A stretch of DNA of 13,845 nucleotides from a virus: the UHGV virus genome UHGV-0175259. The stretch is one strand, 5' to 3'. Below the pieces are notes generated by a model. That model saw nothing but the letters and a program-made list of their open reading frames with translations, had not been told where the DNA came from and made no database searches. This document shows, piece by piece, positions 1,932 to 7,397 of the stretch; the stretch's first letter is position 1; each line of letters begins with the position of its first letter. Both the position numbers and the translations under genes were made by a program.

Positions 1932-2085
1932 TCAGATAAAAGAAATCCCCGCGAGTGCGAGGATAGTTATTCATTGTCGATATTTACATTTATTTCGAAT
2001 ATATTTACTGGGTAATCGCCAAAGTCATATGTTTTTTATTCTGTTTTATAAGCACTACTAAGTACTGCTTATTACAAATAAGAAA

Positions 2086-2120
2086 AGGCTGAAAAAATAT
2101 TTAAGGCCACAACTGTGGCC
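2086..2120 (-). terminator. Rho-independent terminator candidate just downstream of the secreted DUF1311 gene
   Basis: Hairpin GGCCAC(2105..2110)-AACT-GTGGCC(2115..2120), followed on the minus strand by TTAAATATTTTTTC. Confidence 0.5.
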
Positions 2121-2130
2121 CTAAATTTAC

Positions 2131-2829
2131 TTACGGCACTGCGTTAATCAGATTACAAATACCTCTTTTGGCAGGGTCTGAATTCAACTTCTGGAAATTG
2201 GCGTTCAACATAGCAGTGTGTAAGTGATTCTCAACCTCAAAGAATAGGTCGATTTTGCCCTCTTTGGCTGCATGTTTCTTCCAAACATTCACTTGGTCAT
2301 CAGCAATACGACTGGCGCAAGTGAACAAGAACGAACTGCCTCTAGGAATGGACGTCGTGCTGTAATACTCACCATCTACTTCTACATATTTAGCTCGGAA
2401 TGACTCTAAGGTTAGCTTATTGCCGTTCTTGACCGACTTAACTTCTGCCTTACTTGTTTCTTCCTGCTCTTCAGAATGTTTCTGCGTCGACGTGGGTATC
2501 TCATTGGCCGCTGTTACGCTGACTGAACTCCCCAAACCTTTGAGGCCATTAATTTGGATAAGATAAGCCAGCTCCAGAGCCTTATTATCAGTGAGTTTTC
2601 CACGCATATTTACCCACTGACGTTGAACCATTTTTAGGGTGTCTGCGTTCTCTGGGTTTTCTTTGAGGGCACTAGAATAGGCAGAGCTAAGCTGTTCGTC
2701 TAATTTTGACAGACGTTCGTTATCGCAGATTTTATGTTCGATTGCTGTCGAAGCCTTTTGGCAGTCAAAGCTGGCTGCAAATGCACCCGGTGATGCCACT
2801 AACAATGATGCCAGTAGGATATTTTTCAT
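2131..2829 (-). CDS. Secreted protein with N-terminal DUF1311 (LprI lysozyme-inhibitor-like) domain and an uncharacterised C-terminal domain
   Basis: Start moved to the internal ATG 2829..2827 (MKNILLASLLVASPGAFAASF = signal peptide) with SD GGAG 7 nt upstream. Residues ~20-100 show the C..E..IC...L...Y...QRQW...R pattern I associate with DUF1311; Ser/Thr/Glu-rich linker; ~100-aa C-terminal domain of unknown function. Confidence 0.75.
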   Translation of the reverse strand: MKNILLASLLVASPGAFAASFDCQKASTAIEHKICDNERLSKLDEQLSSAYSSALKENPENADTLKMVQRQWVNMRGKLTDNKALELAYLIQINGLKGLGSSVSVTAANEIPTSTQKHSEEQEETSKAEVKSVKNGNKLTLESFRAKYVEVDGEYYSTTSIPRGSSFLFTCASRIADDQVNVWKKHAAKEGKIDLFFEVENHLHTAMLNANFQKLNSDPAKRGICNLINAVP

Positions 2830-2857
2830 ATTCACTCCATAAATACAAAAGCGCATT

Positions 2858-2867
2858 ACTATAGCAC
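2858..2867 (-). promoter_or_regulatory. Candidate extended -10 promoter (TGCTATAGT) for the secreted DUF1311 gene
   Basis: Minus strand reads TGCTATAGT about 25-30 nt upstream of the ATG; no convincing -35. Sequence-only guess. Confidence 0.25.
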
Positions 2868-2959
2868 TTAACCGATCGCTTATCTCGCCCGTTCGTCATT
2901 CTTATCTAACCAGAACATGCGGCTGCCACAGCACATGTCGAGGATCGCTGCATGTCCAG

Positions 2960-3127
2960 TCACCGGTTGCCTCCTTTGCGCAACATCGCATTCAGATATT
3001 TGTTGTCATTAACAGAACCGAAACTCTTTCTCTTAAGCAATTCCTCTCTCGATGGCATTGGCTTTACGCGTTGGCGAATAATCATTTCTGCCGGAAGAAT
3101 GCCGGGATTGTATGCAAGTCCTCTCAT
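2960..3127 (-). CDS. Hypothetical small protein (55 aa) in the early-left operon remnant
   Basis: Track ORF 2960..3280 trimmed to the ATG at 3127..3125, the only start with a good SD (GAGGAA, 6-nt spacer), which lies downstream of the stop of ORF 3138..3434. Product [55 protein letters not shown]. Confidence 0.45.
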
Positions 3128-3137
3128 TGTAAATTCC

Positions 3138-3434
3138 TCAGTCATTACTGATAGCGCCATAGCGTGAGCGGTAATTACGCAGGCGCGGGTCGATATATTC
3201 AGGGAAGTGGGTATATGTGGCTTTGCGGAATGGTCGGATTGATGTCTGGTAAATTCGCTCGCGTTCTTCTTTCTCTGCAAGCCATATACAATGGCGAAAT
3301 TCCTTTTCCTCTTTCGTTTCCTGCGGTAGCGACATTATCCGATCGTAGTTTTTTCTGAATTTATCCAGCACCTCCGATACGGAATTGCCGGAACAGCGGC
3401 GCGGGTCATCCGCACCATACAGAGGCGCTGGCAT
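3138..3434 (-). CDS. Hypothetical protein (98 aa), early-left operon
   Basis: ATG 3434..3432 with SD AGGAG 7 nt upstream, placed just after the exonuclease stop (operon-like packing). No family recognised. Confidence 0.6.
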
Positions 3435-3450
3435 GGTTTTCTCCTGTTGA

Positions 3451-3999
3451 TTATTTAGCTAACTTTTTCCAGATCGCTGAAACGTATTTGGCTTGGTGAA
3501 TGGCATCATCAAGAGCGTTGTGGCGAGTTCCTTTGAATGGCATATCTCGCTTAGGGTCGAATCCTATTACCTTTCCAAGCTCGACGATTGTTCTTACGTC
3601 GCGGTCATTCCACCACTGCCATGGAACTGGCTGCCCTGTCAGCGAATAACTGTTTCGGAGAATAACGCAGTCAAATGATGCTCCATTCCCCCAAACCTGA
3701 ACGAATTTGTGGTTAGCGTTCTTTATGATGAATTCAGATAACCATGAAAGAGCCGTTGAAAGCTCCTGAGTGTTGCTGGTTAGCGATTTTCTGGCTTCTT
3801 CACTCTGTTCCAGCCACCATAAAATCGTTGAAGCGTCAGGACGCGCCCGATATCGCATTGATGACTCAAGCGAGATATTTACCGAGAACTCTTCTCCTGT
3901 TTCTCCGGTATTCGGGTCAAAGAATACCGCCCCAATAGAAATAACTGGCGCGTATGGCCCGTTGCCCATTGTTTCAAGGTCAACCATCAAGTGATTCAT
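3451..3999 (-). CDS. DEDDh-type 3'-5' exonuclease (DnaQ/RNase T-like fold), phage recombination-region protein
   Basis: 182 aa; MVDLETMG (Asp-x-Glu motif I) and HNALDDA (His/Asp motif III); SD AAGGA 6 nt upstream of ATG 3999..3997; immediately downstream of ssb. Confidence 0.75.
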   Translation of the reverse strand: MNHLMVDLETMGNGPYAPVISIGAVFFDPNTGETGEEFSVNISLESSMRYRARPDASTILWWLEQSEEARKSLTSNTQELSTALSWLSEFIIKNANHKFVQVWGNGASFDCVILRNSYSLTGQPVPWQWWNDRDVRTIVELGKVIGFDPKRDMPFKGTRHNALDDAIHQAKYVSAIWKKLAK

Positions 4000-4007
4000 G
4001 TAAGTCC

Positions 4008-4390
4008 TTAAATTGCGTGAATAGCGTGACGAGGGAAGGGGAGAGTTACTGGTGCAAAGGGGATATCGTCGTCAAAATCCATAGGTGGTTCGCTGTGATT
4101 CCCTTGCTGCTGAGGTTGCTGTCTTTGTTGCTGACCGTCATTTCGCTGAGGTGAAGACTGTTCATTGCCTCCTTGCTTGCCACCAAGCATTTGCATGGTT
4201 CCACTAACGCCCACGATGACTTCGGTAGTGAACCGATCCTGTCCGCTTTGATCCTGCCATTTTCTTGTCCGCAATTTTCCTTCAAGATAAACCTCAGAGC
4301 CTTTTCGCAGATATTCGCTGGCAATTTCTGCCAGTTTTCCGCTCATTACCACGCGGTGCCACTCCGTCTGCTCCTTTTGCTCTCCAGTTT
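4008..4390 (-). pseudogene. ssb: Single-stranded DNA-binding protein gene, truncated: about 60 N-terminal codons missing and C-terminus extended 15 aa past the DDDIPF tip
   Basis: Translation ...[59 protein letters not shown]...[12 protein letters not shown] matches E. coli SSB from about residue 45 onward, but homology begins directly after an in-frame TAA and abuts the PL leader/nutL. The longest ORF (4008..4352) starts mid-OB-fold. After DIPF the frame continues [15 protein letters not shown]. Confidence 0.7.
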
Positions 4391-4445
4391 CAGGGCTTAA
4401 TTTTTAAGAGCCTCACCTTCATGGTGGTCAGTGCGTCCTGCTGAT
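4389..4445 (-). promoter_or_regulatory. PL transcript leader with nutL boxA (GGCTCTTA) and a truncated boxB (GCCCTGAA...)
   Basis: Minus strand ATCAGCAGGACGCACTGACCACCATGAAGGTGAGGCTCTTAAAAATTAAGCCCTGAA matches my recollection of the lambda PL leader/nutL almost base for base, then diverges inside boxB (expected GCCCTGAAGAAGGGC; here GCCCTGAAACTGGAG). Confidence 0.6.
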
Positions 4446-4456
4446 GGCTTAAAATT

Positions 4457-4524
4457 ACAAGAAAGATTGTATGTTGTAAACAAGAAATATTGTAAAAAGA
4501 GGCGTGAAAAACAAACTCCATTGT
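4457..4524. promoter_or_regulatory. OL operator cluster (three 434-type 14-bp operators) overlapping PL
   Basis: ACAAGAAAGATTGT 4457..4470; ACAAGAAATATTGT 4480..4493; ACAAACTCCATTGT 4511..4524. All fit the ACAA-N6-TTGT 434 operator pattern. Confidence 0.8.
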
Positions 4525-4573
4525 TTTTAAATGAAAAATAGTTTGTTTTTGGTTATCGAGATTGAGGTGGGGA

Positions 4574-5926
<1,353 letters not shown>

Positions 5927-5934
5927 GACATTCC

Positions 5935-5966
5935 CGCTCTTACACATCCCAGCCCTGAAAAAGGGC
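5935..5966 (+). promoter_or_regulatory. nutR antitermination site (boxA CGCTCTTA plus boxB hairpin GCCCTGAAAAAGGGC)
   Basis: CGCTCTTA 5935..5942; GCCCTGAAAAAGGGC 5952..5966. A lambda-type nutR between cro and cII. Confidence 0.8.
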
Positions 5967-6042
5967 ATTACCAGAAACAAATCTCTATGGTTTTGCGTTT
6001 CTTTGCGAAGCCAACTCTATCTAATCATTAAGGAAATTATCT

Positions 6043-6324
6043 ATGGGTACTATTGCAACTAAAAGCAAGAAAGCGGCTCGCATCGAGTCAGCCTTGCTGA
6101 ACAAACTGGCACTGATGGGGCAGAAGACATTCGCTCGAGCAATGGGGGTTCCTGAATATCAGGTAAGCCGATGGAAGAATGGTTTCTTCTCGCAGGTAAG
6201 CATGATGCTTGCTGTTCTGGAATACGGAATCGAAGACGATGAAATGGCTGAATTGACTAAGCGGCTTGCCGATTACCTGACAAAAGAAAAAGCCCCGAAG
6301 AACGGCGAATTCTTCGAGGCCTAA
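6043..6324 (+). CDS. cII: CII transcriptional activator
   Basis: 93 aa; [25 protein letters not shown]...SRWK...[15 protein letters not shown] closely parallels lambda CII; SD AAGGA upstream. Confidence 0.9.
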
Positions 6325-6358
6325 TGTAGAAAGACTGGATCAATCCACGGGAGTAATT

Positions 6359-6505
6359 ATGACAAAACAACTCAGTCCTTACCAGGACAAAATTCACAAA
6401 CACATACTACGTGATCGCTTCCTGTCCAGCTTCAAGCAGCCTGGTCGATTCCGGGCTGAGTTGGAAAAAGTGAAGCTGATGCAGAAGGAGAAAGGTCATG
6501 AGTAA
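6359..6505 (+). CDS. Hypothetical small protein (48 aa) between cII and the replication initiator, not in the ORF track
   Basis: ATG 6359 with SD GGGAG 6349..6353; [48 protein letters not shown]; its stop overlaps the start of the O-like gene (coupled arrangement). Confidence 0.4.
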
Positions 6506-7397
6506 CATATCTAATCTAGCCGAAGCCAGAGAGGCCAGAAGGCTACAACAACCGCATCAAAGCAGCGGTAAGGGGTATGCCTTGCTGCACCGTAAAATTA
6601 TGGATGTGCCGTTTTACAAGGACGCAGAAGCAGCGCATCTGTGGGTTCACTTAATCCTCAAAGCAAAGCATACGCCTGAGTATGTAATGACTGACGCAGG
6701 AGAAATTCTGGTAGGCAGAGGGAAGCTACTTGGCGGTAGAAACTCTCTGGCGTTTGAAACAGGACTCAAACCAGATCGCGTTCAGTACCTGCTTAGAAAG
6801 TTCAAAAAACTCGGCATGATTGACTGGGTTTCACACGGTAAATTCTCAGTTTTCTCGGTAGAGAAATATGACGATTATCAGTCAAATTTTGTACCAGCAG
6901 ATTACCAGCAAATTACCACCTCAAAGCCAGCAATACCAATGCCTGTAAGCAATACTGTACCAGCAGATTACCAGCAAATTACCACAGATAAAGAATATAA
7001 TAATATTATCTCTAATACTGACGTATTAGAGAGTGCCACAGTAGACAAAAAGTCTGACAAGAAAAAACCTTCCGTTAGCTGTCAGGATGTTGTCGATGCT
7101 TACCACGAAATCCTTCCTGAAGCGCCAAAAATCCGCGCACTGAATGACAAGCGTAAAAACCAGATCCGAACGTTCTGGCGCAAAGCCGGAGTGATAACCC
7201 GCCAGCTTGACGGGCATGGGTTCACGATGCAGGACTGGAGAAATTATTTGATCTACGTAGGCGAAAATTGCCGATGGATGTTCGAAGAACGCCCAAACCA
7301 TCAACGCGGAACCGTCTGGCACAAAAAGGGATTTGATTTCCTGCTTAACGACAATACCTACCTGAAAGTTCGTGAGGGTGAACACGATGACCGATAA
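6498..7397 (+). CDS. Replication initiation protein (lambda O / P22 gp18-like replisome organiser)
   Basis: 299 aa; position after cII and before a DnaB-like helicase with an 11-nt overlap; contains an internal iteron array plus AT-rich tract in its linker, as lambdoid O genes do. Confidence 0.75.
6891..7030. repeat. Candidate phage replication origin: iteron array plus AT-rich tract inside the O-like gene
   Basis: 29-bp direct repeat GTACCAGCAGATTACCAGCAAATTACCAC at 6891..6919 and 6957..6985, each holding two 11-bp ACCAGCA(G/A)ATT sub-repeats, with degenerate copies between; followed by AT-rich GATAAAGAATATAATAATATTATCTCTAATA. Confidence 0.6.

Follow-up and report, generated by a model that had tools for sequence, protein, structure and literature searches.

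A nutL–ssb junction as an illegitimate-recombination scar in a defective P22-like, imm434 prophage of Escherichia coli

A DNA stretch of 13,845 nucleotides (hereafter referred to as the window) was found to contain an ordinary illegitimate-recombination scar, at which the PL leader of a 434-type immunity region is fused, within nutL, to the middle of a phage ssb gene. The scar very probably represents the inherited trace of one microhomology-mediated deletion that took approximately 3 kb out of the early-left operon of a P22-like, imm434 prophage located at sbcB–dacD. The deletion joined the loop of the nutL boxB to codon 44/45 of ssb and removed the 3' arm of boxB, N, the genes from N to ssb, a Rad52-type recombinase gene, and the sequence encoding the SSB N-terminus. 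The window as a whole is a defective prophage remnant of approximately 13.5 kb residing between sbcB and dacD in an E. coli lineage, and the nutL–ssb scar is one of several deletions in this prophage without late genes.

Structure and position of the junction

On the minus strand, positions 4445–4389 read ATCAGCAGGACGCACTGACCACCATGAAGGTGAGGCTCTTAAAAATTAAGCCCTGAA and continue unbroken into ACTGGAGAGCAAAAGGAGCAGACGGAGTGGCACCGCGTGGTAATGAGC. The junction region on this strand consists of ATCAGCAGGACGCACTGACCACCATGAAGGTGAGGCTCTTAAAAATTAAGCCCTGAA followed by ACTGGAGAGCAAAAGG, the nutL half running straight into codon 44/45 of the phage ssb gene. A megablast search of positions 4650–3950 against phage records split the query between two parents at the crossover. 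Query bases 1–262 (window positions 4650–4389) corresponded to the imm434 PL/nutL region (99.2% identity for HK446, HK633, and Sf101, and 95.8% for phage 434), and query bases 261–701 (window positions 4390–3950) to the ssb–exonuclease genes of P22-like phages and prophages. Since each half is near-identical to known sequence across hundreds of bases, chance resemblance does not account for them.

A 2-nt stretch of the query belongs to both BLAST segments and, together with a three-way alignment, places the crossover on the AA dinucleotide at 4389..4390 (minus strand). This dinucleotide is common to both parents (nutL, ...CCCTGAA^GAAGG; ssb, ...AAG[C/A]AA^ACTGG; the caret marks the end of the shared AA), the last unambiguous nutL base being 4391 and the first unambiguous ssb base 4388. 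An earlier note, made from the letters of the window alone, had placed the junction at 4387..4389, and this proved right to within 1–2 nt. Its description of a PL leader with boxA and the first half of boxB was confirmed by 434 feature mapping and BLAST, and the fusion of this leader to a mid-ssb frame by the BLAST split and a tblastn match to SSB residues 45–171. Both flanks match phage sequence up to the crossover, where neither a mobile-element end nor an att site was found. Furthermore, BLAST and the three-way alignment revealed no unassigned or IS-like DNA at the junction, and no tRNA was found there.

Loss of the nutL hairpin and of N

The nutL site comprises boxA and boxB in the PL leader and is used by the antiterminator N. 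In the window, the leader is of the phage-434 type (4389..4445, minus strand), as deduced from alignments to the curated 434 record and to E. coli 20AR0354, and from BLAST identities of 99.2% to HK446 and Sf101. Features mapped from the 434 record included the PL transcript +1 at 4445 and the intact 434-type operators OL3 (4524–4511), OL2 (4493–4480), and OL1 (4470–4457), which, together with the PL –10 element, occupy 4453..4524 on the minus strand. The boxA (GGCTCTTAA, 4412–4404, minus strand) resembles CGCTCTTA, lies in the early leader ahead of boxB, and is identical to the 434 nutL boxA, its G being native to 434. Of boxB, the 5' 8 nt (GCCCTGAA, 4396–4389, minus strand) are retained and are identical in the same alignments. 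Compared with nutL of lambda and 434, promoter, operators, +1, leader, and boxA are thus essentially as in 434, whereas the 3' arm of boxB and the N gene are deleted here and the hairpin is impossible.

A complete nutL boxB stem–loop would occupy 4397–4381. The alignment with the 434 PL–nutL region proposed in the earlier note was carried out, and only 4397–4389 of the stem–loop were found to be left. A 15-nt interrupted palindrome with a 5-bp stem and a GAAGA/GAAAA pentaloop was not present at this site. The RNA spanning the junction was predicted to fold with a minimum free energy of –6.7 kcal/mol (z = +0.22), which is no better than shuffled sequence. For the intact nutL site, by contrast, –11.5 kcal/mol was obtained, the fold being the canonical hairpin with its 5-bp stem and its pentaloop. 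The possibility that another hairpin resembling boxB has taken its place at the junction, which would have spoken against the loss claimed in the earlier note, was therefore rejected, and a pattern search for boxB recovered nutR only.

A tblastn search with the N protein of the undeleted relative detected no N gene anywhere in the window, as had been claimed. The nutR site is intact at 5935..5966 on the plus strand, as determined by pattern search and the 434 nutR annotation, with boxA (CGCTCTTA) at 5935–5942 and boxB (GCCCTGAAAAAGGGC) at 5952–5966. Its boxB is perfect despite the absence of N from the element. Because no N gene is left in the element, nutR is orphaned, and nutL can be regarded, on sequence grounds, as a dead nut site.

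The truncated ssb gene

The other half of the junction is a 5'-truncated phage ssb pseudogene (4008..4391, minus strand) encoding residues 45–171 of a 171-aa protein, with 97.6% amino acid identity over these residues (tblastn). It corresponds to the ssb of P22-like and lambdoid prophages (Sf6 gp27 type), of which intact 171-aa alleles are present in E. coli GPEC1405 and 20AR0354, and it shares with them the downstream 3'–5' exonuclease gene and abc2. The copy in the window differs from them in that residues 1–44, the native start, and the ribosome-binding site are absent. The fragment matches positions 40–100 of 104 of the Pfam SSB model (PF00436) and does not comprise a complete OB fold, which confirms, along with tblastn, that the N-terminal half of the OB fold is missing. 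In the genome of E. coli MRE162, the PGAP annotation lists the gene as a pseudogene without its N-terminus.

A residual open reading frame of 114 aa (4008..4352, minus strand) remains in the ssb fragment; according to the open reading frame list, it starts with GTG at 4352, and a GGAG motif is located 9 nt upstream (4365–4362). Automatic gene callers predict this frame, and a 114-aa product is possible. The SSB fragment is predicted to be unable to form an OB fold and, without OB-fold strands 1–3, should not bind DNA.

The acidic DFDDDIPF motif is kept in the fragment; as in intact alleles, the protein continues for 15 residues beyond it. The last 46 nt of the ssb allele (4008–4053) are identical to the 3' end of the gene for a free-standing endonuclease, which is located next after ssb in Sf6, Huey, and CurroJimenez (compared loci L027:1851-2330 and L028:1851-2330), and the allele without the endonuclease gene therefore reads from DDDIPF directly into the tail of the endonuclease frame. 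In hundreds of prophages, the acidic tip of SSB consequently lies 15 residues ahead of the C-terminus.

Comparison with undeleted relatives

The prophage of E. coli 20AR0354 (L004), the nearest undeleted relative, served as comparator for the lost DNA. It is 99.9% identical to window positions 4389–6505 (2 mismatches in 2,117) and 99.0% identical to positions 1936–4390, its flanks are collinear with the window on both sides, and 3,050 bp lie between its two breakpoints. Collinear flanks, the gap of this size, and the AA microhomology of 2 nt at the crossover characterize the junction as a deletion scar and support the interpretation as a deletion or illegitimate-recombination event given in the earlier note. 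The 3,050-bp interval of the relative comprises the 3' arm of boxB, N (108 aa), an Nmad5-family gene, three small open reading frames, the Rad52-type recombinase gene, and ssb codons 1–43. The gene order in phage Huey and in E. coli GPEC1405 is likewise N ... kil ... recombinase–ssb, and the inspected relatives carry kil or cIII-type genes in the interval between N and ssb. No protein of the lost interval was found to be encoded elsewhere in the window by tblastn.

Since L004 is integrated at a different place and its identity to the window is no higher than 99.0% on the ssb side, it is not the literal ancestor, and the length of the deletion is approximate. Among relatives, this length would range between 2.7 and 3.4 kb, size and gene content both being approximate. 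The search for the undeleted ancestor that had been suggested therefore yielded a close relative with an intact interval, but not the true ancestor. The claim that the early-left genes are missing holds for the proximal ones, whereas exo, abc2, DUF2737, and the LprI-like gene remain.

Gene content of the prophage remnant

The window begins with int, a xis-like gene, the LprI-like gene, DUF2737, abc2, the 3'–5' exonuclease gene, and the truncated ssb gene, continues with PL/OL, hex, cI (434), cro, nutR, cII, DUF2740, an O-like gene, and a truncated DnaB-type helicase gene, and ends with the sar RNA, ant, the tailspike gene, and an O-antigen acyltransferase gene. Genes for nin functions, Q, lysis, head, and tail were not found in the window. 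An integrase gene and host-gene flanks in combination with missing lysis, head, and tail genes are the features of a defective prophage. The integrase gene (347–1525) is transcribed inward from the sbcB side, sbcB being located just left of position 1, and the O-antigen acyltransferase gene (11677–13599; Acyl_transf_3 and SGNH domains) lies at the far end of the remnant. No tRNA gene was found at the attachment side of the remnant.

Immediately downstream of the scar, the genes for the 3'–5' exonuclease (3451–3999, minus strand) and, beyond it, for the anti-RecBCD protein Abc2 (3138–3434, minus strand) survive, both identified by Pfam. On the opposite side, the cI repressor gene of the 434 type (4975..5607, minus strand) is intact, featuring Pfam HTH and S24 peptidase domains, and its product has the same protein accession in the undeleted relative. 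The adjacent hex-like gene (4574..4978, minus strand) encodes 134 aa with a signal-peptide-like N-terminus and without a Pfam match; its start overlaps the cI stop (ATGA), an arrangement that couples it translationally to cI. In phage 434, this gene is annotated as 'repressor protection protein', and in the Huey record its counterpart is labeled PagP.

A second, independent deletion junction at 8515..8516 (plus strand) was recognized by comparison with MRE162 and by the Pfam DnaB_C match, which covers positions 1–184 of 255. Here, the helicase gene breaks off at approximately codon 381 and continues into the P22 immI region, a short distance upstream of sar and ant. A look-up of the truncated DnaB frame as a 402-aa protein was unproductive, this form not being on record, and gene callers use a start giving 397 aa. 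The sar antisense RNA is complete (8536–8602, minus strand; 73 bits in Rfam) and located just upstream of ant. MRE162 carries a different, overlapping deletion near 8515–8603. Because the two deletions differ and yet overlap, they are independent and derive from a fuller ancestor.

Distribution of the junction and sister types

An ENA metagenome scaffold (WENC17-1...scaffold_1066; L012) agrees with the window at each of the 13,845 positions (100% identity), and the window overlaps the locus of E. coli MRE162 with 99.94–100% identity. Among 5,426 complete E. coli genomes, the junction was present only in the three closed MRE162 clones. Exact 24-nt junction scans of genome, viral, and metagenome contig collections found nothing. 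Further carriers surfaced by exact-protein look-up, the 114-aa frame being present on 24 public contigs and the tailspike on 23. Representative contigs were fetched from NCBI, ENA, and Logan, and all loci inspected sit at sbcB–dacD. Besides the MRE162 clones, carriers of the remnant include GCA_015476745.1, GCA_012599595.1, GCA_023599255.1, GCA_037286865.1, GCA_036602125.1, and GCA_043184465.1, as well as the isolates or metagenomes of ERZ8156829, SRR11318962, SRR24502285/87, ERR1790112, and ERR2204571. By genomic context, 17 of the 24 contigs with the ssb' frame were assigned to types A, B, or C, and the remaining 7 to type D. The junction 24-mer was found in all of the 18 fetched non-D loci (L006, L008–L014, and L017–L026) and in the MRE162 locus (L001); by context grouping, these loci represent approximately 26 public contigs.

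Type A is arranged as the window and includes L006, L010, L012, L013, and others. In type B (MRE162, L009, and L014), O is partly deleted, dnaB is fused to a P63C gene, and mnt–arc is retained. In type C (L008 and L011), cro is fused to ant. Type E (L019 and L022) is nested in type A and has lost window positions 7779–8964, and type F (L023) exhibits a small change in O (6919–6956). The partial loss of O in MRE162 is a 788-bp deletion in the O-like gene (window positions 6570–7359) with TA microhomology, which the window does not share. The replication module was hit repeatedly, as seen in this deletion and in the change of type F. The other junctions of the remnant family likewise feature microhomologies of 2–3 nt (TA, TAC, TA, and AAC).

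Since types A, B, C, E, and F share the nutL–ssb junction but differ by further, nested microhomology deletions, the scar is real and inherited. It appears to have arisen once, or at least to be shared by descent in these five types. With 1–4 private SNPs per lineage, types A, B, C, and D form a star-like tree. The element had lost, or later lost, all late genes, and its decay goes on by short-microhomology deletions.

Variant D and the ssb breakpoint

Variant D is represented by L007 (L007:8270-10010), L015, and five similar contigs, and has the same host flanks as the other types. Where it overlaps the window, identity is 99.9–100%, but the DNA upstream of ssb' is different. It comprises, in this order, a truncated tailspike gene (from window position 13845 to 9807, descending), an inverted O'–dnaB segment (window positions 7196–8517, followed by the remainder of dnaB and a further 12 nt), and an inverted 26-nt copy of ant (window positions 8946–8971), which leads into ssb' from 4388 downward. 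The three successive joints feature AAC, TAC, and AA. Variant D is devoid of cI, PL, and the whole immunity region. Its ssb breakpoint is that of the nutL junction, within the same AA. A native continuation of dnaB was rejected as an explanation for the left flank of ssb' in this variant, since the last 23 nt do not occur in this context in any complete genome and correspond to the ant copy. Three breakpoints of two variants fall within the 26 nt of ant at 8946–8971, namely both ends of the patch in variant D and the type E endpoint at 8965/8966. This segment is rich in short palindromes (AGTACT, GGCC, CATG, and GTTAAC), and the clustering of breakpoints may be a coincidence.

A single random deletion does not predict the identical ssb endpoint of variant D. 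The finding could be explained if the ssb nucleotide at ...AA^ACTGGAG... were a recurrent break or stall site, re-used rather than a random endpoint, with nutL–ssb' (types A, B, and C) and ant patch–ssb' (variant D) being separate repairs of breaks at one place. Speculatively, re-use might be caused by a site-specific nick or nuclease, or by breakage at the point where the homology to other prophages carrying ssb runs out. The chance of re-using a 3-nt interval, at approximately 3 in 10,000, is small, and the near-identity of the flanks to the window as well as the star phylogeny are compatible with separate events. In the order of plus-strand synthesis, variant D consists of a short templated insert followed by longer segments (26 nt, approximately 1.65 kb, and onward), an architecture that would fit serial template switching from a broken ssb end as described by the MMBIR model. 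The reciprocal inversion joint, TTAAGCCCTGAA followed by CCCACGCAAAG, would instead mark an origin of variant D by inversion plus deletions. If site-specific fragility were true, this lineage would represent a natural record of one fragile site driving stepwise prophage decay.

Nevertheless, a fragile site is considered unlikely. A breakpoint-spanning probe of the intact ssb gene showed the site to be uninterrupted in 238 of the 241 complete-genome records carrying this ssb allele, the three truncated ones all being MRE162, and a general hotspot or mosaic boundary in ssb was rejected on these numbers. No enzyme or motif cutting at this position was identified. Homing-type cleavage by an Sf6-gp26-type endonuclease received no support: in phages with the adjacent endonuclease gene, ssb homology is continuous across codon 43, without a mosaic boundary, and the endonuclease gene lies approximately 320 nt downstream. 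Type IIS sites noted by eye (CTGAAG in boxB and CTGGAG in ssb) are probably not involved, as the cut positions of such enzymes, 16/14 nt downstream, miss the junction. Moreover, variant D may descend from a junction-bearing ancestor, and the SNP tree gives no order of D relative to A, B, and C.

Formation of the scar and consequences for early-left transcription

One inherited deletion is the preferred explanation of the nutL–ssb' scar. On the ssb-retained side beyond the AA dinucleotide, 14 of 25 in-register positions are shared by the two parents (p ~0.001 against random pairs of positions, with no correction for how the comparison length and side were chosen), and no similarity of the parents was found on the other side of the crossover. 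The MRE162 record begins at dnaA on the plus strand and has the remnant locus at 1.82 of 4.69 Mb, and the layout of the E. coli chromosome gives the fork direction across this locus. Forks are expected to cross the prophage in the plus direction of the window, and ssb' would therefore be copied before the junction. The deletion may accordingly be pictured as follows: a nascent leading strand ending in ssb would have detached and re-annealed approximately 3 kb ahead at nutL, with AA and the patchy 14/25 similarity on the ssb side providing the pairing.

N-dependent antitermination at nutL would be abolished by the deletion. After loss of cI repression, transcription from PL would run without N into exo–abc2, as far as approximately position 2126. 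PL transcripts could reach these genes without N because the three terminator-like hairpins found in this interval of the relative are gone, and none was predicted between 4445 and 2126 in the window by a terminator scan. Rho may act on the leader of approximately 440 nt, which is probably untranslated, and thereby limit read-through from PL.

It is quite unlikely that the deletion was kept because exo–abc2 and other early-left survivors gained N-independent, cI/SOS-controlled expression from PL, N-dependent toxic functions being removed and the host gaining immunity, serotype conversion, and an inducible nuclease/anti-RecBCD function. For such a domesticated module, it can be noted that types A and B have kept cI, hex, OL/PL, exo, abc2, ant, the tailspike, and the O-antigen acyltransferase frames intact while their replication and late genes are decaying, and that terminators are predicted in the deleted interval of the relative but not from PL to 2126. 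However, the remnant persists in variants C and D even though they are missing cro or the entire immunity/PL region, indicating that PL control of exo–abc2 is not maintained. In addition, the long leader could provoke Rho termination, and the divergence of 1–4 SNPs per lineage is too low to test selection.

That the junction is naturally mosaic and belongs to a functional phage with a short SSB-like gene and no N is effectively refuted. The 114-aa frame with its GGAG motif ahead of GTG would be in line with such a gene, but no intact phage with the same short ssb gene and upstream sequence, which the earlier note had named as contrary evidence, was found by BLAST, junction scans, or protein look-ups. 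The junction was absent from phage records and viral contigs (BLAST and 24-mer scan), every carrier inspected is a remnant without lysis and morphogenesis genes, the fragment is devoid of the first ~40 OB-fold positions, and nutR persists although N is gone. An artefact of assembly or chimera formation is refuted by independent assemblies, the same junction being present with consistent host flanks in the three closed genomes and in 18 of 18 other fetched contigs (types A, B, C, E, and F).

Relation to known systems and significance

Scars of this type, left by short-homology deletions in cryptic lambdoid prophages, are well known, and the junction does not constitute a new system. Cryptic lambdoid prophages shaped by deletions between short repeats include the K-12 remnants Rac, DLP12, and Qin. 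The remnant studied here resembles them in its host flanks, integrase, immunity region, and few accessory genes, in the loss of late genes, and in several 2–3-nt microhomology junctions, vertical inheritance, and continuing decay. It differs in being a P22-like, imm434 element at sbcB–dacD that has apparently been undescribed so far, the genome announcement of MRE162 making no mention of a phage or prophage. MMBIR/FoSTeS has been described mainly for eukaryotic copy-number variants and for stress-induced amplification in E. coli. Variant D is alike in its three 2–3-nt microhomology junctions, inverted segments, and 26-nt templated insert, although in this case the process is deduced from junction architecture alone.

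For annotation, the results imply that the ssb open reading frame is a pseudogene, that nutL is dead, and that nutR is orphaned. For specialists, the single point of interest is the re-use of the ssb breakpoint in variant D. The at least six sister variants (A to F) constitute a small natural series of deletion and template-switch junctions in E. coli. Altogether, this lineage provides a nucleotide-resolution record of how a temperate phage is disarmed in its host: the antiterminator, the recombinase, and part of ssb were lost at once, replication and late genes were then lost by nested deletions, and immunity, antirepressor, tailspike, and O-antigen acyltransferase genes persist.
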